A stretch of 64,000 nt of DNA from Nitrososphaeria archaeon (GTDB taxonomy: Archaea > Thermoproteota > Nitrososphaeria > Nitrososphaerales > JACAEJ01): the NCBI GenBank assembly GCA_029775925.1, contig JARVKB010000008.1, positions 3,394-67,393 of the forward strand. The letters are read 5' to 3'. The position numbers were made by a program, and so were the translations under genes. Positions 12,377 to 61,849 of the stretch are shown here, piece after piece (within the stretch, counting starts at the first letter, position 1; each line of letters opens with the position of its first letter). Under the pieces are notes generated by a model. The model searched no databases, was not told where the DNA came from, and worked only from the letters and a program-made list of their open reading frames with translations.

Positions 12377-15300
12377 TTGAGGATAAAGGATTTACCTATA
12401 CCTGAAAAATTAATACGACTTATAGAATCACTTGGTTACTTTAATCTTTATCCGCCTCAAGAAGAGGCTGTAAAAGCAGGAGTATTGGAAGGCCAGAATT
12501 TACTCCTAACAACACCAACTGCCAGTGGAAAGACTCTTGTAGCTATGCTAGCGGCTGGAAAGATAGTCCTAGAAGGGCTAGGAAAAGTTGTCTATCTTAC
12601 TCCATTAAGGGCTCTTGCAAATGAGAAGTATAATGATTTTAAGGCTTTTGAAAATTTAATTAAACCTAATGGTAATCATGTAAAAGTTCTCATCTCAACA
12701 GGAGATTATGACTCATCAGGAGAATCCTTAGGATTAGGTGATATACTTATTCTTACAAATGAAAAGTTCGATTCTGTCCTTCGTCATGGTGTATCTTGGA
12801 TAGACTCTGTGAAACTCTTCGTTACTGATGAAATTCATATTGTTGGTGATGATGACAGAGGACCAACCCTTGAGATGACTGTAACTAAAATTCTTTCTTA
12901 CGCTAATAATGCACAAGTCCTTGCCTTGAGTGCTACAGTAAAGAATTCAAAGGAATTGGCAGACTGGCTTGGAGCAAAACTTATAGACATAAAGTGGAGG
13001 CCTATAAAGTTAATTGAAGGGGTTTACCAGCATGGAGAGATAATTTTTTCTGATGATTCAAAAAGAAAAATAAAACCAACGAATAGAGGGCATGCTATAG
13101 ATGTAGCAATAGATGCAATTAACGAAGGAGGACAATCCCTTATATTTACAGAAACAAGGAAAATGGCAGTAAGTCTCGCCCTCAAGGCTTCAGAACTTAC
13201 CCAGCATCATTTAACAAAGGCTGAAGTTAAAAAGGCTAAAGAATTATCAATGAATATATTATCATCAGGGGAAGAGACAGAATTAAGCAGGACTTTATCT
13301 AAAGTAGTCGAGAAAGGGACGGCTTTCCATCATGCTGGGCTTACTGGAGCGCATAGATCGATAATAGAGGATGGATTCAAAAATGGCTTGATCAAAATCT
13401 TAACTGCAACCCCTACACTTGCAGCAGGGGTAAACCTTCCAGCGAGGAGGGTGGTGATAAGCAGCTTGATGAGGTACGATTCAGACTATGGAGGAAAGGC
13501 ACCTATCAGTGTATTAGAATATAAGCAAATGTGTCTACCCTATTGGACAAAAGTTCTGATAAGTGATGGGACAATGATGCCTATAGGCGAAATTGTAGAG
13601 AAGAAGGTAGCTGATAGAGTAATAACATTTGACAAAAGAAAAGAGAAGTTCGTATATGGGAGAATCATTGATTGGTTTTCAAGAGAAACTGATTGTCTAT
13701 TAGAAATAGAAACAAGCGGAGGATTAAAAATTCGTCTTACACCAGAGCACCCGATTCTAACTAAAGAGATAGGATGGATATCTGCAAAAAATGTGAAAAT
13801 AGGGGAGAGAGTGGGTTATGCAAGAGAATTTGAGTATATTCCAGATAAGAACCTTCTATTTTTCTTTAAGCATATACCAATTAACGGGACATACTTGAAA
13901 AATACGACAGATCTCTTCGATCTCGCAAAGCTAAAATTCACACGTAAAGAATTGGCTACTTTATTAGGTAAAGATCTAAAAGTGGTAAAGGAATATGTAA
14001 GGGGAAAGAAAGCAATACCACTTTCTGTCATATTGGCACTTTGTAAACTATTGAATCTTAGCGATAATGAAATCGCTGAAAGGCTGAAAGAAGTCAAAAC
14101 AGCTTATGGAACACCGCTAAAAATTCCAAAATACATAAACGAGGAATTTATGTGGCTACTAGGGTTTATTGCTTCATATGGTAATATTGAAGAAATTGTA
14201 GATAAAAGAACTAAATCAGTTTATCATAAAATCAGGGTCTTTAATAAAAATCCTAAAATTATTGATAAAACCATTGATATCTTACATTCTCTGGGTCTCT
14301 TTCCCTACGTTCGTAAAAAAGACAATTACACATCGGTTGAAGTTGGCTCTACGTTATTGGCTAATTTAATGAGAAAATTTGGAATTCCATTCGGAACAAA
14401 GGATAAATTAAGGGTTGCAGAAACCATTTTTTCTTTCCCTCCAAATTTGATTGGTGCCTACTTGATGGGCGTATTTGACGGCGATGGAAATTATATAGAA
14501 TTAAAATCTAAATCAACTATAAGAAGGATAGTAATCTCAACAGCAAGTGAAGAATTCGCTTACGATCTTCATAATTTACTGATAAGGTTAGGAATAGTTT
14601 CTTATATTAAGAAAACACAACCTAAGCCTGCGCTTATTAGAAGTAAAAGAGCCGAATTTAAAAAGCCAGTTTACAACATTATCTTTAGGAAGATAAGAGA
14701 TATAAAAAAATTCACTTCCTATGGGACTCCAGTTAAATATAACATACCTTTCATTGATTACAGCAAATATCATAATCTGAACAAATACCATACTATCATC
14801 GAGCCTGTAGAGTGGCTAAAAGTGAAATACATTAAGATAATCAATGAAAAAACAAAGGTTTATAACATATCGGTAGAAGACACGGAGAATTACATAGCTG
14901 AAAATTTTATTGTCCATAATTGCGGGAGAGCTGGTAGACCAAAATATGACGATATCGGAGAGACAGTGATAATAGCACATAATCAATATGAAGCTGATGA
15001 AATTTTATATAACTACATAAAAGGTGAACCAGAACCAATTAGCTCAAAATTGCATGATGAATCTGCTTTAAGGATTCATCTTTTAGCGACTATTGCAAGC
15101 CTTCCTGGTATTACAGATGTTGAGATCCTTAAACTTCTTTCTAAATCTCTTTTAGCCATTCAGTATAGACATGCTGCCATTCAATCAAAAGTCAATAAAG
15201 TAATAAATTATCTTTTAGGTGAAGGTTTGATAGAAAGAAGAGGGAAGCGTTACATTGCCAGCGAATTTGGAAAAAGAGTCTCCACTCTTTACATTGACCC

Positions 15301-15955
15301 ATTAACAGGAGTAATATTTAAAAGAGCAATAAACCTTGCAAAGAAAAATAACCCTCATTTGTTAGGCTTTCTCCACCTAATAGTCTCTTCTCCAGACTTC
15401 TCACCAAAATTTCCATTAAGGAGTAGAGACATAGATGAAGCTCAAAGGCTTTTTGATCAAAATAAGGATGAATTTATATTACCTTTGCATAAGAATGATA
15501 TTTATGAAGATTATTTTAAAGATTTTAGGAGTCTTCTCGTCCTTTATGGTTGGATAAATGAATGGAGTGAAGATAAAATACTTGATAAATTGGGGGTAGA
15601 ACCAGGAGACTTACACAGAGCTGTAGAAACTTCTGAATGGCTCGTCCACTCCTTATTTGAGCTATCTAAGTTGCTAGGAAGAGTAGATCTTTTACCTGAG
15701 ATTGCACAGCTGGAGCAAAGAGTAAAGCAAGGAATAAAACCTGAACTCATACCTTTGGCAAAGTTGGAAGGAATAGGGAGAGTAAGGGCTAGATCCTTAT
15801 ACAATCATGGCTTTACAGATCTTGACAAATTGGCATCGGCATCTATTGATAAAATAGCCTCAATACCAAAAATAGGTATTATAATGGCTAAGAGTATTAA
15901 GAAGCAGCTACAAGAGAGAAATAAATTTAAGTATAAACTAAATCACATCGATTAA
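12377..15955 (+). CDS. hel308: Hel308/Hjm-type Ski2-like DNA helicase, interrupted by an intein
   Basis: TTG start gives MRIKDLPIPEKL...LYPPQ (Q motif). Motifs TPTASGKT (Walker A), DEIH and SAT are present. Motif VI QM/CGRAGRP is split by a 463-aa insert. A C-terminal winged-helix/HhH region is present. Confidence 0.9.
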   Translation: MRIKDLPIPEKLIRLIESLGYFNLYPPQEEAVKAGVLEGQNLLLTTPTASGKTLVAMLAAGKIVLEGLGKVVYLTPLRALANEKYNDFKAFENLIKPNGNHVKVLISTGDYDSSGESLGLGDILILTNEKFDSVLRHGVSWIDSVKLFVTDEIHIVGDDDRGPTLEMTVTKILSYANNAQVLALSATVKNSKELADWLGAKLIDIKWRPIKLIEGVYQHGEIIFSDDSKRKIKPTNRGHAIDVAIDAINEGGQSLIFTETRKMAVSLALKASELTQHHLTKAEVKKAKELSMNILSSGEETELSRTLSKVVEKGTAFHHAGLTGAHRSIIEDGFKNGLIKILTATPTLAAGVNLPARRVVISSLMRYDSDYGGKAPISVLEYKQMCLPYWTKVLISDGTMMPIGEIVEKKVADRVITFDKRKEKFVYGRIIDWFSRETDCLLEIETSGGLKIRLTPEHPILTKEIGWISAKNVKIGERVGYAREFEYIPDKNLLFFFKHIPINGTYLKNTTDLFDLAKLKFTRKELATLLGKDLKVVKEYVRGKKAIPLSVILALCKLLNLSDNEIAERLKEVKTAYGTPLKIPKYINEEFMWLLGFIASYGNIEEIVDKRTKSVYHKIRVFNKNPKIIDKTIDILHSLGLFPYVRKKDNYTSVEVGSTLLANLMRKFGIPFGTKDKLRVAETIFSFPPNLIGAYLMGVFDGDGNYIELKSKSTIRRIVISTASEEFAYDLHNLLIRLGIVSYIKKTQPKPALIRSKRAEFKKPVYNIIFRKIRDIKKFTSYGTPVKYNIPFIDYSKYHNLNKYHTIIEPVEWLKVKYIKIINEKTKVYNISVEDTENYIAENFIVHNCGRAGRPKYDDIGETVIIAHNQYEADEILYNYIKGEPEPISSKLHDESALRIHLLATIASLPGITDVEILKLLSKSLLAIQYRHAAIQSKVNKVINYLLGEGLIERRGKRYIASEFGKRVSTLYIDPLTGVIFKRAINLAKKNNPHLLGFLHLIVSSPDFSPKFPLRSRDIDEAQRLFDQNKDEFILPLHKNDIYEDYFKDFRSLLVLYGWINEWSEDKILDKLGVEPGDLHRAVETSEWLVHSLFELSKLLGRVDLLPEIAQLEQRVKQGIKPELIPLAKLEGIGRVRARSLYNHGFTDLDKLASASIDKIASIPKIGIIMAKSIKKQLQERNKFKYKLNHID
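13532..14920 (+). mobile_element. Intein (463 aa) with a LAGLIDADG homing-endonuclease domain, inserted in helicase motif VI
   Basis: Starts with Cys (CLPYWTKVLISDG), has TPEHPIL block B and LAGLIDADG blocks LLGFIASYGN and YLMGVFDGDGNY, and ends ...NFIVHN followed by a +1 Cys. Excision restores EYKQM-CGRAGRP. Confidence 0.85.
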
Positions 15956-17217
15956 TGCCTATCACTACAGTTTTTAGATACATAAAACCTGAAGTTTCTC
16001 CGAGAGAGGATCCTGAAGGTTTTGTAAAAGGAGCTAGAGATTTCATTAGAAAACATGTAAAATCGGACGATAAAGTTAAAATAATGGTCTCAGGAGGAAT
16101 TGATTCCTCAGTTACAGCAGTTCTTTTTTACTTGGAGATAGGTGACAGGCTCTATGTTACTCATGTAGACACTGGTTTTATGAGGCTTATAGGAGGAAAG
16201 GAAGAATCTCAGTTGATTGCTGATAGATTCTCTGAATTTAAGAACTTCAAGCTTATAAATGCAAGATCTTTATTCTATGAAAAAGTTATGGGTATTCGTG
16301 ATGCAGAACAGAAAAGGATTGGTTTTCGTAAAGCTTACGAAATTATAACAGATCAGCAGATGAGAGAATCTAATTGTAATGTAATGACTCAGGGAACGAT
16401 ACTGCCAGACATTATTGAGACTGAAGGAGGAATTAAAAGTCAGCATAACGTTCAATTAAGATTTAGCAACGTTCAGAAGATTGTAGAACCTCTTGCAGGC
16501 CTTTTTAAAGATGAAGTTAGAAAGGTTGCAGAATTTTTGTGGTCTAATTATAAGATGAAAGTCTTAGAGAACATTTCTAGAAGGCAACCTTTTCCTGGTC
16601 CAGGACTTTCCATTAGAGCAGTTGGTAACATAACGCCAGAAAAACTAGAAGTTGAAAAAAGGGCAAATGATATAGTTGAACAGATGATCGATGAATATAC
16701 AAGGAAAAAATATAATACCAATCTTTATATAGATGAGAGAACGGGAGAACAAATCCCATTCCAATCGTTTGCTGCAATTTTTGATGGTATATTTACAGAA
16801 GAGGTAAATGATTTAATACCATCATTAATGGAGAAGAAGAGAAAGAACATAAAATACAAAATTCTAGATGCAAATGTCACGGGCTTAAAGAACAATAAAA
16901 GAGTTTATGCTCCTCCTCTTTGCATTGAAAGTTACGTTGATTTAAGTTATGATATTTTGGAGAAGATAGGTAGTGAAATACCTTTAAAGACCTCTTTCCC
17001 AAGAGTTTTATATAAAGTCAATTCTAATTCTGGCTCATCAAGATATGTAATTGCCATAAGGTCTGTTAATAGCATCGATGCTATAACAGCAAGTGTTAAC
17101 AAAATTCCTATAGTAGAGGTTAAAAGGATCGCAAATGAAATAGTCAGGCAATGTAATGTAAAAGAAGTCTATTGGGATATATCTCCTAAGCCACCTGCGA
17201 CTATAGAATATGAATAA
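15955..17217 (+). CDS. guaA: GMP synthase subunit B-like ATP pyrophosphatase with an extended C-terminal domain
   Basis: PP-loop SGGIDSS, plus QGTILPDIIE..IKSQHNV, PFPGPGLSIR and a C-terminal PKPPATIEYE. At 420 aa it is about 110 aa longer than usual archaeal subunit B. Its ATG overlaps the hel308 TAA (TAATG). Confidence 0.65.
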   Translation: MPITTVFRYIKPEVSPREDPEGFVKGARDFIRKHVKSDDKVKIMVSGGIDSSVTAVLFYLEIGDRLYVTHVDTGFMRLIGGKEESQLIADRFSEFKNFKLINARSLFYEKVMGIRDAEQKRIGFRKAYEIITDQQMRESNCNVMTQGTILPDIIETEGGIKSQHNVQLRFSNVQKIVEPLAGLFKDEVRKVAEFLWSNYKMKVLENISRRQPFPGPGLSIRAVGNITPEKLEVEKRANDIVEQMIDEYTRKKYNTNLYIDERTGEQIPFQSFAAIFDGIFTEEVNDLIPSLMEKKRKNIKYKILDANVTGLKNNKRVYAPPLCIESYVDLSYDILEKIGSEIPLKTSFPRVLYKVNSNSGSSRYVIAIRSVNSIDAITASVNKIPIVEVKRIANEIVRQCNVKEVYWDISPKPPATIEYE

Positions 17218-17272
17218 TAAAATACTGTATGATAGTTATACCAATAAAAAAGAAGTTTGGGAATTTTTTGTT

Positions 17273-17968
17273 TTATATGGATGGAGGTGGAGGAGGTGGT
17301 GGAGGTACTGGCTGCCCCAAAGAAAGGTAAAGGTATACTGCTGAAACTATGAAAATGACATCGAAGATCCAGCTTATTATAGCCCCTATGTAAGCACCGA
17401 CAACTGGTATTAACGAGAAACCAAGCCCTAAGATTAGGGCGATAACTATCACAATTATTACAAAAATAATCACTTCCCCTAAATTCTTTATGACAAAATC
17501 AAAAGACCTTTTTGTACTTTCTATAGCATCTTTCCCTTCTATAACGGCGATTACAACGATGAACAAAGCGAAAGGAATTAAGAAGAATATGAGGAAGAAT
17601 ATCGCTGAAATTATAGAAGCAATGAATAATGTACCTAATCTACCAGTCACGGCTTTCATACTTTTATTCATATTCATCGGTCGTCCGTTAATGATATCGT
17701 TAGTCATATCAACGATTATACAGAAAGCTATGAACCCTATGATAGATGCTATGAAATAACCTCCCCAGATAAGATACGGATTTGGAACTACTATCTCATA
17801 TATGAAAGGATAAAAGCCAAATTGATACCTAATTGGAAAAACTATGTATGCAAGAATAAGAAAGATCAAATGAACAATGATCGGTCCAAGAGCTGGGATG
17901 AACAAACCGAAGTTTTTGGTTGAGACGTTGAACCCTTTAGATATGGCTTCAGTCGCTTTTGAAGACAT
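17273..17968 (-). CDS. Polytopic membrane protein with a C-terminal poly-proline tail (...GQPVPPPPPPPPSI-stop)
   Basis: 231 aa with about 5-6 hydrophobic helices. Eight consecutive Pro codons lie at 17282-17305, then S, I and the stop. Confidence 0.7.
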   Translation of the reverse strand: MSSKATEAISKGFNVSTKNFGLFIPALGPIIVHLIFLILAYIVFPIRYQFGFYPFIYEIVVPNPYLIWGGYFIASIIGFIAFCIIVDMTNDIINGRPMNMNKSMKAVTGRLGTLFIASIISAIFFLIFFLIPFALFIVVIAVIEGKDAIESTKRSFDFVIKNLGEVIIFVIIVIVIALILGLGFSLIPVVGAYIGAIISWIFDVIFIVSAVYLYLSLGQPVPPPPPPPPSI

Positions 17969-18032
17969 AACCCACTCCTTCTAAGTGTAGATAAATGGCT
18001 TTATAAAACTTGTGTTAACTCTTGAACAGATA

Positions 18033-20078
18033 TTATAATTTCCTATAAAAACCAGGTTTAACTTCATATATCTGGCCGCTACGATTCAAAGTCTGGAGCA
18101 TTCTTTGAGCATCCTCTTGAGTGAACTTTTTGGTTTTGACTAACTCATCTACGAACACTTTACCTTCTACAGGGTTCTTCTCTGGTCCCTCTAAACTTTT
18201 GAATATATCTAAGGCTGTCTCTAACAAAGTTCTCTCGCTCAAGGGTTTACCATGGAGTACTCCAAGGTCTATCTTACCTGTCTTTACATCTACCCCTACA
18301 GTCTCTAGCATCCTTCTCATAAGAGATATTGCTCTTATAGCATCCTCTTCTGTAACCTTATCTCGGAGCATTATTCTGGCTCTAGCCGTAGCCAATCTTA
18401 TCAAAGATTCTAATTGCCTAGGTGTAACAGTTATCATAAAATCTGAACCTATCTTTCTCATTTCAAGGTAATATTCGAGTAACTTCTCTTCTGCTTCTTT
18501 AGTTAGGACAGGCTGGAATTTTTTAGCGTAAACTATGTACTTTCTAAGAAGGTTAAAATCTATAGGAGGGGTTGTAACATAGTCTCCTTTTCTATGCAAT
18601 TCTAATACATGTCTTGCTAGTTGCTCATCTTTAGCTCTATCAGGTATATCTCTTAATACGAATATTAGATCGAATCTAGTTAGTAAGGGGATTGGAAGGT
18701 TAAGATTGTCAGCAATGTTCCTATAAGGATCGTACTTGCCAAGTATTGGGTTTGAAGCAGCTAATATCGATGTTCTAGCATTTAAGGTTGCAACGATACC
18801 TCCCTTTGCGACACTTACAGTCTGTTGTTCCATCGTCTCATGTAAAGCGTTTCTATCTTCTGGCCTCATCTTATCGAATTCGTCTATCGCTGCAACACCT
18901 TGGTCTGCTAAAACTACAGCTCCAGCTTCGAGCATCATCATGCCTGTCCTCTCTCTAACAACTGCTGCTGTTAAGCCTGCTGCAGTACTGCCACGTCCGG
19001 ATGTGTATAAACCTCTAGGAGCAATTCTTGCTGCGTACTTAAGAAGCTCACTCTTAGCCGTACCAGGATCTCCTACCAATAATACATTAATGTCCCCTCT
19101 TATAGTTGTACCATCAGGCATGATTCGTTGAGGGGAACCTGTAACAAGGAGAAGTATGGCCTCTTTCTGGGTTTCATAACCATGAATCGCAGGAGCTACC
19201 GATTCTATGAGTCTTTCATAAGCTCCTGGCTGAGAAGTTATACTACGAATTAGCTCTTCATCCTCTTTTGTTATTTGTATGAGCTCGGGCTCTTTCCCTA
19301 ACACTTCTATATAATTTCCTTCCATTTTGGATCGGAATAATCTGAGCTTTCCTGCAGCCTGAGAATATTCTGCTTCCGCTCTTACTATGCCTGTAAGTAT
19401 TACTCTATCGCCAGGTCTCGCTGTATTCACAATATCCCCTTGTAAGCTAACATCAAAGGCTTGAGGAAGCTGTCCTGGAGGCAACTCTTCAGGCAACTCT
19501 TGTAACCTTATTATCTGATAGTCTACGAAAACTGTATTTTTTATATCGAGTTCAAATTTATTGGATTTACAACTACCTTCAGAACATCTTGAAGGCTTTT
19601 TTAGAATAATCCCAGATTGCGGTATCTTTATCATATGCCCTTTTGTACATCTAAAGGTTGCTTCTAATGCTAAAGGTTTTAATTCCGACGCTCTAACAAC
19701 CATGCCATTAACAGAGACTAGCTTGTCAAGATGTTCTGTAGTTATCTGCCTTAAAGATAATTTATCAGTTAGATTCCTTATCCTAACTTGAATATCTTTA
19801 CGAATTCTTTCAGCATAATCAGAATTTTCAACTTTAAGAGCCTCATAAGTTGCTTTAATGAAGCTTGGTAAGACTTCGTCAGGCTCATTTCGAAGTCTAT
19901 TCGCTAAGTCCAAATTATACATGAGAAGGTCTTCAAAGTCTACTACCAAAGATTTTGAATTTAAGGAAACCATCTGTGATAATCTCATTCTGTACTTTAA
20001 TTTACCATTTTTATCCTTGAAAGTCTTAAGAAAGAATTCGAGAGATTCAGCAAGCTTTGCTGGAGTGACTACGCTCAA
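18033..20078 (-). CDS. mcm: Replicative helicase MCM
   Basis: Walker A GDPGTAKS, Walker B IDEFDKM, arginine-finger SRFDL-type block (TRFDLIF), a zinc motif in the N-terminal domain and a C-terminal winged helix. Confidence 0.95.
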   Translation of the reverse strand: MSVVTPAKLAESLEFFLKTFKDKNGKLKYRMRLSQMVSLNSKSLVVDFEDLLMYNLDLANRLRNEPDEVLPSFIKATYEALKVENSDYAERIRKDIQVRIRNLTDKLSLRQITTEHLDKLVSVNGMVVRASELKPLALEATFRCTKGHMIKIPQSGIILKKPSRCSEGSCKSNKFELDIKNTVFVDYQIIRLQELPEELPPGQLPQAFDVSLQGDIVNTARPGDRVILTGIVRAEAEYSQAAGKLRLFRSKMEGNYIEVLGKEPELIQITKEDEELIRSITSQPGAYERLIESVAPAIHGYETQKEAILLLVTGSPQRIMPDGTTIRGDINVLLVGDPGTAKSELLKYAARIAPRGLYTSGRGSTAAGLTAAVVRERTGMMMLEAGAVVLADQGVAAIDEFDKMRPEDRNALHETMEQQTVSVAKGGIVATLNARTSILAASNPILGKYDPYRNIADNLNLPIPLLTRFDLIFVLRDIPDRAKDEQLARHVLELHRKGDYVTTPPIDFNLLRKYIVYAKKFQPVLTKEAEEKLLEYYLEMRKIGSDFMITVTPRQLESLIRLATARARIMLRDKVTEEDAIRAISLMRRMLETVGVDVKTGKIDLGVLHGKPLSERTLLETALDIFKSLEGPEKNPVEGKVFVDELVKTKKFTQEDAQRMLQTLNRSGQIYEVKPGFYRKL

Positions 20079-23390: not shown

Positions 23391-23798
23391 ATGAAGCTAA
23401 ATCCTATAGGAATAATAGGTGGCATCGTTCTAATAATTTCTCCCTTCCTTCCGTGGGTCAGCGTCTTGTTCTTCAATTTAAGTCTACTAGATCTTCTTTC
23501 ATTTAGCACGTTAATCGGCGATGCTACTTACTACATTATCCTGATCATTCTAACCTTATTGGTATTGGGTGGTATTATAGCTCTTTTTAAAGGATTAATA
23601 GGAGGTATAATAGGCCTTGTTGGCGTGCTTATTTTTACTATCTTAATATTGGTTGGTGGACAAACCTTTGCTGTAACTGCTTATCTCGGTATAGGTTATT
23701 ATCTAGCATGGATAGGTGCTATCTTGAGCATAATTTCTATTGTTTGGAAAAGGCTTACGCCCGCTCCTTCCATACCTCCGCCGCCTCCGCCAACTTAA
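23391..23798 (+). CDS. Small polytopic membrane protein with a C-terminal tail APSIPPPPPPT-stop
   Basis: 135 aa, almost entirely hydrophobic (about 4 TM). Six Pro codons lie at 23775-23792. It is a paralog of the next gene. Confidence 0.7.
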   Translation: MKLNPIGIIGGIVLIISPFLPWVSVLFFNLSLLDLLSFSTLIGDATYYIILIILTLLVLGGIIALFKGLIGGIIGLVGVLIFTILILVGGQTFAVTAYLGIGYYLAWIGAILSIISIVWKRLTPAPSIPPPPPPT

Positions 23799-23907
23799 AC
23801 TTAACAATTTCATCTAATTTATTTATCCATTAGGAAAATTAGAAAGTTAAGTTAACAAAAAGCTTTATAAGTTAATGCTAAATCGTTTTCATTGGAGAGA
23901 AAAATAA

Positions 23908-24477
23908 TTGAAAATAAATTATATTGGTATTTTTGGAGGTATATTGGCATTCGTCAGCTTAGCTTTAGCATGGTGGACAATGTCCCTTTCGGTCACAGGA
24001 ATGGGAATGACTATAGGTGGCGAAGTTTCAATATACCCCTATCAAGCGAAGGCATCGATGATGGGGTTGTCGGAGGCGATCCCTATGGATATGTGGTTCG
24101 GTTGGGCAGTTTTCGCTCTTATCCTCGTAGGTGGTTTACTGGGGATAATAGGTAGTATCACAAAATATGGCGGAAAGTTGCTTATTATTGGTGGAGTACT
24201 CGCTTTTCTTTCAATAATAATCTTTGTAGTGGGTTTGCAGATGGGGTTATCGGATCTACAGAGACAACTTTTGGAATTCGGTATGTCCCCGACAGGGTTA
24301 GGTTTATTCTCTAGCGGAACTATGAATTTAGGTTATGGAGTAATTGCAAACTATTCAACTTATCTATCTTTTGGCTTTTGGTTAGCACTAATAGCAGCGG
24401 TCTTAATGTTTGTTGCTGCCTTAAGAAAGGTGGAAGTTGCCCCTTCTATACCTCCACCACCCCCTCCTCCTACCTAA
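23908..24477 (+). CDS. Small polytopic membrane protein with a C-terminal tail APSIPPPPPPPT-stop
   Basis: TTG start gives MKINYIGIFGGI, parallel to MKLNPIGIIGGI of the upstream paralog. 189 aa, about 4 TM. Seven Pro codons lie at 24451-24471. Confidence 0.7.
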   Translation: MKINYIGIFGGILAFVSLALAWWTMSLSVTGMGMTIGGEVSIYPYQAKASMMGLSEAIPMDMWFGWAVFALILVGGLLGIIGSITKYGGKLLIIGGVLAFLSIIIFVVGLQMGLSDLQRQLLEFGMSPTGLGLFSSGTMNLGYGVIANYSTYLSFGFWLALIAAVLMFVAALRKVEVAPSIPPPPPPPT

Positions 24478-41545: not shown

Positions 41546-41935
41546 ATGGCTGAAAAACCAACAGCTGCATTCATTTTATCTCTAATCGGGGCTATACTCA
41601 TCATTCTCGATGGCTTATGGGTGGCCATTGCTTTTTCTATCCTTGGTGGCATTAGTTTTATGTTGCCAGGACTTGAGTTGCTAGGTGGTCTCTTTTTAAT
41701 TATAGGCGTCGTAGCCATCGTGCTAGGAGTACTTACCCTTGTAGGCGCTTTTATGATGAACACTTCAAATAAAAATAAAGTTAAAACAGGTGCGATTCTT
41801 GTACTTATCTTCTCTATAATAAGTCTAATCGTAGGTGGAGGTTTTATCATCGGCTTCATTTTATGCTTAGTGGGCAGTATATTGGGACTTACATGGAAGC
41901 CTACAGAAGCCCCGCCCCCGCCGCCTCCTTCCTAA
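41546..41935 (+). CDS. Small polytopic membrane protein with a C-terminal tail TEAPPPPPPS-stop
   Basis: 129 aa with about 4 hydrophobic helices. Six Pro codons lie at 41912-41929, then S and the stop. Confidence 0.7.
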   Translation: MAEKPTAAFILSLIGAILIILDGLWVAIAFSILGGISFMLPGLELLGGLFLIIGVVAIVLGVLTLVGAFMMNTSNKNKVKTGAILVLIFSIISLIVGGGFIIGFILCLVGSILGLTWKPTEAPPPPPPS

Positions 41936-61453: not shown

Positions 61454-61849
61454 TTGAGCAAGCCTGTCGATCTTGGTAGCTTAAAAGAAGGATCGTATAT
61501 AATTATTGATAATGAAGCCTGTAGGATAGTGTCCTATGATAAATCAAAACCAGGAAAACATGGTTCTGCAAAGGCGAGAGTCGTAGCTATAGGATTATTC
61601 GATAATGTAAAGAGGAGCATAGTAGCGCCTGTAGATAGCTTGGTTCAAGTTCCTATAGTAGAGAAAAGAGGTGGTCAGATAATCTCAATAATGCCTGATA
61701 GAGTTCAAATCATGGATCTTGAAACTTTTGAGGTTTTTGAAGCTCCGAAGCCTGAAGAGCCTGAGATTATAGAAAAATTATCTCCAGGAAATGAAGTAGA
61801 GTACTGGCGGGTTTTAGGAAAAAGTAAGATAATGCGAATAAAAGGCTAA
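61454..61849 (+). CDS. eif5a: Translation factor aIF5A (hypusine-containing)
   Basis: Hypusination loop [13 protein letters not shown]. 131 aa. TTG start preceded by ggag. Confidence 0.9.

Follow-up and report, generated by a model that had tools for sequence, protein, structure and literature searches.

We analyzed a gene that lies between mcm and guaA in a Nitrososphaeria archaeon (assembly GCA_029775925.1; 1.40 Mb, 35% GC, 34 contigs), on a 64,000-nucleotide stretch of contig JARVKB010000008.1 that we call the window and whose positions are used throughout. The open reading frame (ORF) at 17273-17968 on the minus strand starts with ATG and encodes a 231-residue membrane protein whose C-terminal end reads ...YLSLGQPVPPPPPPPPSI-stop, with an uninterrupted run of eight prolines shortly after the last membrane helix. 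The run is retained across a wide range of homologues, its codon pattern indicates selection on the amino acid itself, and similar tails are found on unrelated membrane proteins of the same genome; we propose, at a probability of roughly 45%, that the tail is a rigid cytoplasmic handle that docks a soluble or peripheral partner. The gene is made up as follows.

17273-17968, minus strand: coding sequence of the 231-residue, multi-pass, DUF7847-like membrane protein with its polyproline tail (from the ORF, the sequence, the orthologues and Pfam)
17306-17317, minus strand: linker of G218, Q219, P220 and V221, leading from the last membrane helix to the run (from alignments)
17282-17305, minus strand: run of eight prolines, P222-P229, codons CCT CCA CCA CCT CCT CCA CCT CCA (read from the sequence)
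17276-17281, minus strand: S230 and I231, the variable residues that follow the run (from the sequence)
17273-17275, minus strand: TAA stop codon of the 231-residue gene (from the sequence)

Direct reading confirms what an earlier inspection of the window (the original prediction) had described, namely a 231-residue ORF with eight proline codons, mixed CCT and CCA, at the positions given above.

Proline runs in the genome

We counted proline runs in a crude set of non-overlapping, ORF-based genes (1,512 ORFs and 411,780 residues, of which 4.0% are proline). Runs of at least four prolines number eight, where about one is expected, and runs of at least six prolines number six, where the expectation is about 0.002 (an excess of approximately 3,000-fold); the proline runs of this genome are far beyond chance. 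Their placement is equally skewed: in seven cases out of eight the run stops no more than three residues short of the C-terminus (the expectation is about 1.5% per run), and six of these seven come straight after the final membrane helix, as judged for proteins that we did not model by a simple hydropathy scan. Four of the tailed genes are in the window (17273-17968, 23391-23798, 23908-24477 and 41546-41935), and the rest are on contigs C31 and C8. For reference, archaea contain about 0.1-1 PPP motifs per 10,000 residues according to a published survey (PMC4218817).

The tail is confined to a small subset of the proteins that might carry it. Among 387 predicted membrane ORFs, the last helix is no more than 20 residues from the C-terminus in 177, of which just six (about 3%) bear a run; we therefore rejected the idea that the tail is a general aid to the insertion of late last helices. 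Across a class-wide sample of 400 genomes, the pattern of six prolines, any residue and a stop codon is at background in two large families and exceeds its control only in the window's own taxonomic family, the pattern being frame-blind and hence a rough measure.

The remaining runs of the genome vary in setting. A 631-residue single-pass protein (contig C31:56014-57909, plus strand) ends ...VRRRKPPLPPPPH-stop, a short form of the cytoplasmic tail. A 397-residue protein (contig C8:50440-51633, plus strand), with an N-terminal membrane helix and an apparent PDZ-like C-terminal region, ends ...TLGTRPPPPI-stop and has the genome's only C-terminal proline run without a preceding membrane helix. 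The eighth run, P7, belongs to a 667-residue surface-type protein (contig C11:34279-36282, plus strand), where, unlike every other run, it lies just outside the C-terminal anchor helix. In four other genomes of the taxonomic family small ORFs (L056, L059, L060 and L063) read RAPPPPPPNPPPPPNPPPP(P)..., and their conserved repeat of five or six prolines and an asparagine could be a real proline-rich peptide or another frame of a different feature.

Conservation of the tail

Orthologues of the 231-residue protein are present in seven of nine genomes of the same taxonomic family, at 72-89% identity, and all seven end in a proline tail: P3-TS, P5-TS, P7-S, P8, P9, P9-M and, in the window, P8-SI. 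A profile search of 5.8 billion proteins extended the family to 155 homologues, the named ones coming from Bathyarchaeia metagenome-assembled genomes (MAGs) and from MAGs labelled 'Nitrososphaerales archaeon' (taxonomy according to the record titles). We counted tails on the best 120. At least five consecutive prolines occur within the last 25 residues in 82 of the 120, and 49 have 9-11 prolines; run length varies from P3 to P15 overall, with 9-10 the commonest, and genome records from Bathyarchaeia MAGs add P13, P14 and P15. The layout is constant among the 82 homologues with at least five prolines: an arginine or lysine, a linker of zero to six residues (most often three) and then the run, after which 70 of the 82 have no more than three residues. 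These last residues are mostly S, T, L, A or Q, all single-nucleotide neighbours of the proline codon CCN.

The tail persists in most of the 120 homologues, down to approximately 50% identity, and is absent from an outgroup that is 26-30% identical. In a maximum-likelihood tree of 111 cores, long runs are found in basal and derived clades alike; two subclades have interrupted tails that are rich in P, S, T and Q, and in a few lineages the run has been lost. When a profile without the tail was searched exhaustively, the picture was similar, in that the nearest clusters are tailed, the next clusters (E values of 1e-59 to 1e-40) are not, and most distant relatives are tail-less, apart from a few distant branches with apparently independent tails. 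In five Bathyarchaeia genomes that have an orthologue, the DUF7847 tail is almost the sole run of seven or more prolines. Among the tail carriers that we found, the DUF7847 protein is the oldest and the most widely conserved.

Body and tail were compared for selection across the seven orthologues. The ratio of nonsynonymous to synonymous substitution rates (dN/dS) is 0.05-0.19 for the body, which is the mark of purifying selection. In the codons of the run the first two positions keep CC, and the third takes all four bases; because third positions vary freely while CC is kept, the run is, on this codon evidence, under selection at the amino acid level. Such conservation suggests that the tail is functional. 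A role of the repeats in RNA, where CCUCC resembles an anti-Shine-Dalgarno sequence and GGAGG stands on the opposite strand, was rejected because the third positions are free while the reading frame, the proline itself and its place ahead of the stop codon are kept. On the plus strand the complement of the run is TGGAGGTGGAGGAGGTGGTGGAGG, a series of GGAGG motifs that look like Shine-Dalgarno sequences and lie downstream of guaA; no ORF begins near this series and the third positions vary in orthologues, so that the series looks incidental.

Scaffold family and predicted structure

The body of the protein matches the Pfam family DUF7847 (PF25231) over residues 83-186, with an E value of 9.3e-6 and a score of 25.5 bits, which is below the gathering cut-off of 28.7. 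The precomputed annotation of an identical sequence includes PF25231.2, and of the 68 aligned homologues 52 match DUF7847 at E values of 0.01 or less (6.5e-9 at best). A few of the 68 match DUF2189, GPDPase_memb, EI24/CysZ (two homologues) or DUF975 weakly; NCBIfam gives a weak BPSS1780-family match for the 231-residue protein itself; and the distant outgroup carries UPF0259 (PF06790).

The AlphaFold2 model, built from the 68-sequence alignment, has a mean predicted local distance difference test score (pLDDT) of 90.9 and a predicted template modelling score (pTM) of 0.85. It comprises helices at 4-18, 20-43, 64-93, 100-109, 111-126, 128-143, 148-161, 163-185 and 191-217, a beta hairpin at 46-61 and a tail modelled as coil, with the membrane helices at 20-43, 64-93, 111-126/128-143, 163-185 and 191-217. 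What the original prediction had taken for an internal soluble loop is in the model an amphipathic helix (148-161). A profile search of the PDB sequences matched no relative, and Foldseek against the PDB gave no match at E values of 0.001 or less; its best fold matches, at 12-16% identity, were CTL1 (E value 0.1, template modelling [TM] score 0.39-0.45), PNS1 (TM score 0.52) and CysZ (3tx3; E value 0.47, TM score 0.5). We conclude that the scaffold is a DUF7847-type membrane protein, for which an architecture of hairpins like those of CysZ and CTL proteins, and with it a transporter function, is at most hinted at.

Both ends of the protein are probably cytoplasmic, and residues 111-143 probably form a re-entrant helical hairpin, because basic residues cluster in the N-terminus (three lysines and arginines, by the helix boundaries of the model), in loops 94-110 (four) and 144-162 (four) and at the junction past the last helix, as opposed to one in the hairpin 44-63 and none in loop 186-190. 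At the junction (position 218) nearly all orthologues have R or K; the protein of this genome has G. Two further observations agree with a cytoplasmic tail. In one DUF7847-like homologue (P0129) the place of the tail is taken by RK, a proline-rich PPPP linker and a C-terminal zinc ribbon, and in single-pass proteins with an external domain the run comes after RRRR behind the anchor. A Bathyarchaeia genome also encodes a two-helix membrane protein (L085:1281-1859, plus strand) in which P8 and a proline-rich linker are followed by an apparent helix-hairpin-helix domain; in this protein and in P0129 the proline stretch forms a stalk to a small cytoplasmic domain.

Tails on unrelated scaffolds

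The other tailed proteins of the window served as a comparison set.

23391-24477, plus strand: tandem paralogous small membrane proteins of 135 and 189 residues, ending APSI-P6-T and APSI-P7-T
41546-41935, plus strand: four-helix membrane protein of 129 residues, ending TEA-P6-S, with a weak DUF4064/DUF6114 match

BLASTP of the 231-residue core against the 135-, 189- and 129-residue proteins detected no homology (E values of 0.37 or worse), and hhalign with the tails trimmed gave probabilities of 6.1% against the 129-residue family and 0.3% against the 135/189-residue pair. Kinship among the small tailed proteins themselves was considered and dropped: BLASTP matches obtained without composition correction vanished at the profile level once the tails were trimmed. 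The 129-residue family retains P6-P7 in its orthologues within the window's taxonomic family, and its homologues of 46% identity or less in other taxonomic families end at W[KR]P, without a proline run. We counted at least nine tailed scaffolds in this genome and its relatives: DUF7847, the 135/189-residue pair, the DUF4064-like protein, a Vps62-domain multi-pass protein, an M66-like metallopeptidase, a P-domain protein, an SBP_bac_5 solute-binding protein, two DUF996 proteins and an unnamed 154-residue protein. Among the cores that were compared we found no profile similarity.

The original prediction held that the core looks unrelated to the pair at 23.4-24.5 kb and that its tail appears to have been acquired or retained independently. 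Both statements are supported: the core has no detectable homology to those of the other three tailed proteins in the window and the tail is present in orthologues, which supports a convergent origin of the tail on the DUF7847 scaffold, independent of the other tails. The further suggestion of a portable module fared less evenly. It holds only in so far as tails recur on unrelated scaffolds; the linkers differ (GQPV, APSI and TEA) and nothing therefore points to a transferred cassette; repeated extension or expansion at the 3' end is at least as likely an origin as cassette transfer.

Gene neighborhood

Upstream of the gene, after 64 nucleotides, lies mcm on the same strand (18033-20078, minus), and downstream guaA (15955-17217, plus) is convergent with it, as the original prediction had it; guaA ends at 17217 and the minus-strand ORF at 17273. 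The order mcm, 231-residue gene and opposing guaA is kept in three genera. Two candidate expression signals flank the coding sequence.

18000-18007, minus strand: candidate archaeal TATA box, TTTATAAA, 32-39 nucleotides 5' of the ATG (from the upstream alignment of seven orthologues)
17246-17251, minus strand: T6 tract, a candidate archaeal oligo-T terminator between the convergent genes, 22-27 nucleotides past the stop codon (from the sequence only)

The 231-residue gene probably has its own promoter with this candidate TATA box, because TTTATAA is invariant in the aligned upstream regions of all seven orthologues.

Abutting guaA at 15955 is an ORF for a Hel308/Ski2-type helicase of 1,192 residues (12377-15955, plus strand), with a large insertion between ...QMC/LPYW... 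and ...VHN/CGRAGR that has an intein-like look and a homing-endonuclease-like middle. For the genome as a whole, affiliation with the methanogens was considered and rejected, as no MCR alpha gene was found in it.

A cytoplasmic handle and its alternatives

After the last helix, the C-terminus continues with a single basic residue (here G), zero to six linker residues, an unbroken proline run and zero to three unconstrained residues. In the reading that we favour, at the rough probability given above, the run would form a stiff polyproline-II rod of about 25-30 Å that projects from the cytoplasmic face of the membrane, and this rod would serve to dock or address the protein to a partner, either soluble or peripheral, independently of the scaffold that bears it. 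The topology, the polyproline-II conformation and the docking of a partner are all parts of the reading that we infer. It is supported by the long preferred run length and by the presence of tails on unrelated scaffolds. The scarcity of tails among membrane ORFs with late last helices (6/177) speaks for a specific tag rather than for general help in biogenesis, and the subclades with interrupted tails, which stay rich in proline, are easier to reconcile with a structural or ligand role than with a precise stalling signal.

Several observations weigh against a docking handle. Run length is loose: close relatives (dS 0.2) differ as P5 does from A+P3, sister pairs differ by up to six prolines (7 versus 10, 5 versus 3 and 5 versus 11) and, as noted, a few lineages have lost the run. 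No obvious reader is encoded, in that the polyproline readers profilin, SH3_1, WW, GYF, WH1 and UEV were not found in the genome (no match at E values of 0.1 or less for PF00235, PF00018, PF00397, PF02213, PF00568 and PF05743; three of these searches had no positive control and are weak). The sole candidate is an ATPase on contig C17 (139412-142204, plus strand), where two ESCRT-III-like ORFs of 213 and 261 residues, with weak Snf7 matches, are followed by a 400-residue MIT-AAA protein of the Vps4/CdvC type (141002-142204; MIT match of 32.4 bits, above the cut-off). The first of the ESCRT-III-like ORFs ends ...KDKLPELPIGTKIPTSESIT, a proline-containing motif that resembles the MIM2 type (LPELPIGTKIP). 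This ATPase is a non-specific candidate for a reader of the tail, and the hydrophobic positions of the neighbouring motif have no counterpart in a pure proline run. The runs, moreover, occur only at the extreme C-terminus and never at the N-terminus, a position that a ligand leaves unexplained; a translational model rests on the very same feature, and sequence analysis alone cannot separate it from docking.

That translational model is the alternative that survives best, and we regard it as possible, if doubtful. Eight to 15 prolines before the stop codon would act as a throttle or pause that makes elongation and termination depend on modified aIF5A, with the consequence that the output of this transporter-like protein and of other tailed proteins would be tied to the status of aIF5A and polyamines, or that the ribosome would stay at the membrane during handling of the last helices. 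Consecutive prolines stall ribosomes and require EF-P or a/eIF5A for relief; in Escherichia coli, the region downstream of membrane helices is enriched in polyproline motifs, and in bacteria such motifs pace the synthesis of membrane proteins (PMC5811046). The tails lie zero to three residues before the stop codon and just past a membrane helix. The genome combines a run well above the three consecutive prolines of a stalling motif with a gene for the rescue factor: its single aIF5A gene, at about 61655-61843 (plus strand), shares the window with four tailed genes. Tails contain modestly more of the rare codons CCG and CCC than the genome at large (20 of 75, as against 15% genome-wide, CCT and CCA making up the other 85%; p approximately 0.01), and the near-exclusive hold of the DUF7847 tail on long runs in five Bathyarchaeia genomes would fit a single regulated target.

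Three prolines, however, already suffice for stalling, so that a pause does not need the preference for 9-10 prolines that has held over deep divergence. The interrupted P/S/T/Q subclades retain proline richness yet weaken the stalling motif. A paused ribosome would still enclose the last helix in its tunnel, so that the pause could not aid insertion of that helix. Finally, a run is present on only six of the 177 proteins with a late last helix.

The two further explanations are less likely. The tail might be a protective cap or inert spacer with no specific partner, one that resists carboxypeptidases, makes a poor start for degradation or holds the C-terminus off the membrane. Its position at the extreme C-terminus fits this, as do the unconstrained following residues that resemble decayed proline codons, the tolerance of anything from P3 to P15, the proline-rich stretch that leads to a zinc ribbon in one homologue and the several record names that indicate hot-spring MAGs. 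We nevertheless consider a cap or spacer unlikely, since a run is present on just some 3% of the membrane proteins whose C-terminal ends are short and 9-10 residues are more than a cap needs. A nearly neutral low-complexity expansion, in which CCN repeats at the 3' end slip and are tolerated at a cytoplasmic terminus, would account for the shifts in run length between close relatives and for flanking residues one nucleotide away from CCN, but it is already disfavoured and highly improbable, as the run is retained to approximately 50% core identity in many clades, mixed codons slip poorly, mutation at 35% GC should erode CCN, and runs of at least six prolines stand about 3,000-fold above expectation, nearly all of them C-terminal and on membrane proteins.

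Relation to known systems

The families closest to the core are DUF7847, UPF0259 (YciC), DUF2189, DUF975 and GPDPase_memb, to which it is linked by the matches described above, the match here being below the DUF7847 cut-off and most of the distant relatives lacking the tail; to our knowledge these membrane families have no known function. CysZ (PDB 3tx3), CTL1/SLC44 and yeast PNS1, with helical hairpins partly inserted in the membrane, are its best but weak fold matches, at TM scores of 0.39-0.52.

The tail itself recalls several systems and differs from each. The ligands of SH3, WW, EVH1 and GYF domains and of profilin (formin FH1) are likewise exposed cytoplasmic polyprolines of similar length on many unrelated carriers, whereas the tail described here is a pure homopolymer at the very C-terminus, with no specificity residues; actin was not found in this genome. 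The EF-P/eIF5A motifs of CadC and EnvZ (PMC5811046, PMC6023141) also place consecutive prolines near membrane helices, but the bacterial motifs are PP or PPP, internal and approximately 45 residues past the start of the helix, as compared with 8-15 prolines that are terminal and begin zero to six residues past the helix. In the pairing of ESCRT-III MIM2 with the MIT domain of Vps4/CdvC, a proline-containing, extended C-terminal peptide is read by MIT, and a MIT-AAA ATPase is encoded here too; the tail lacks the alternating hydrophobic residues of MIM2. Archaeosortase signals (PGF-CTERM) resemble it as short C-terminal signals that unrelated proteins of the membrane or surface share within one archaeal lineage, but their order is motif, helix (which is removed) and basic tail, and that order is not present in the 231-residue protein, where a helix is followed by a basic residue, linker and proline run; the carriers here also include multi-pass proteins. 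A C-terminal ligand of the PDZ type does not fit either, given that the run is followed by zero to three residues of no fixed identity (S, T, L, A, Q or none).

Implications

Our literature search found no description of terminal polyproline tails on archaeal membrane proteins, only general work on polyproline stalling, on aIF5A and on Asgard profilin, and DUF7847 is named in just one of the papers found, which surveys the annotation of a bacterium. Archaea have few long proline runs, and such runs are costly to translate; in this 1.4 Mb genome almost all of them stand directly past the last helix of a membrane protein, at its probably cytoplasmic C-terminus. More speculatively, and with less confidence than we give to the handle itself, the tails may make up a lineage-specific cytoplasmic address code of Bathyarchaeia-like archaea, with a reader unrelated to SH3, WW or profilin, or they may gate the synthesis of a transporter-like protein through modified aIF5A; in this translational version, polyamine status would be linked to membrane composition. 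The tail offers a simple and testable handle on these questions, and the retention of the DUF7847 run across a class-level radiation points to undescribed biology of archaeal membrane proteins, which may lie in docking or sorting or in a control of synthesis linked to aIF5A.

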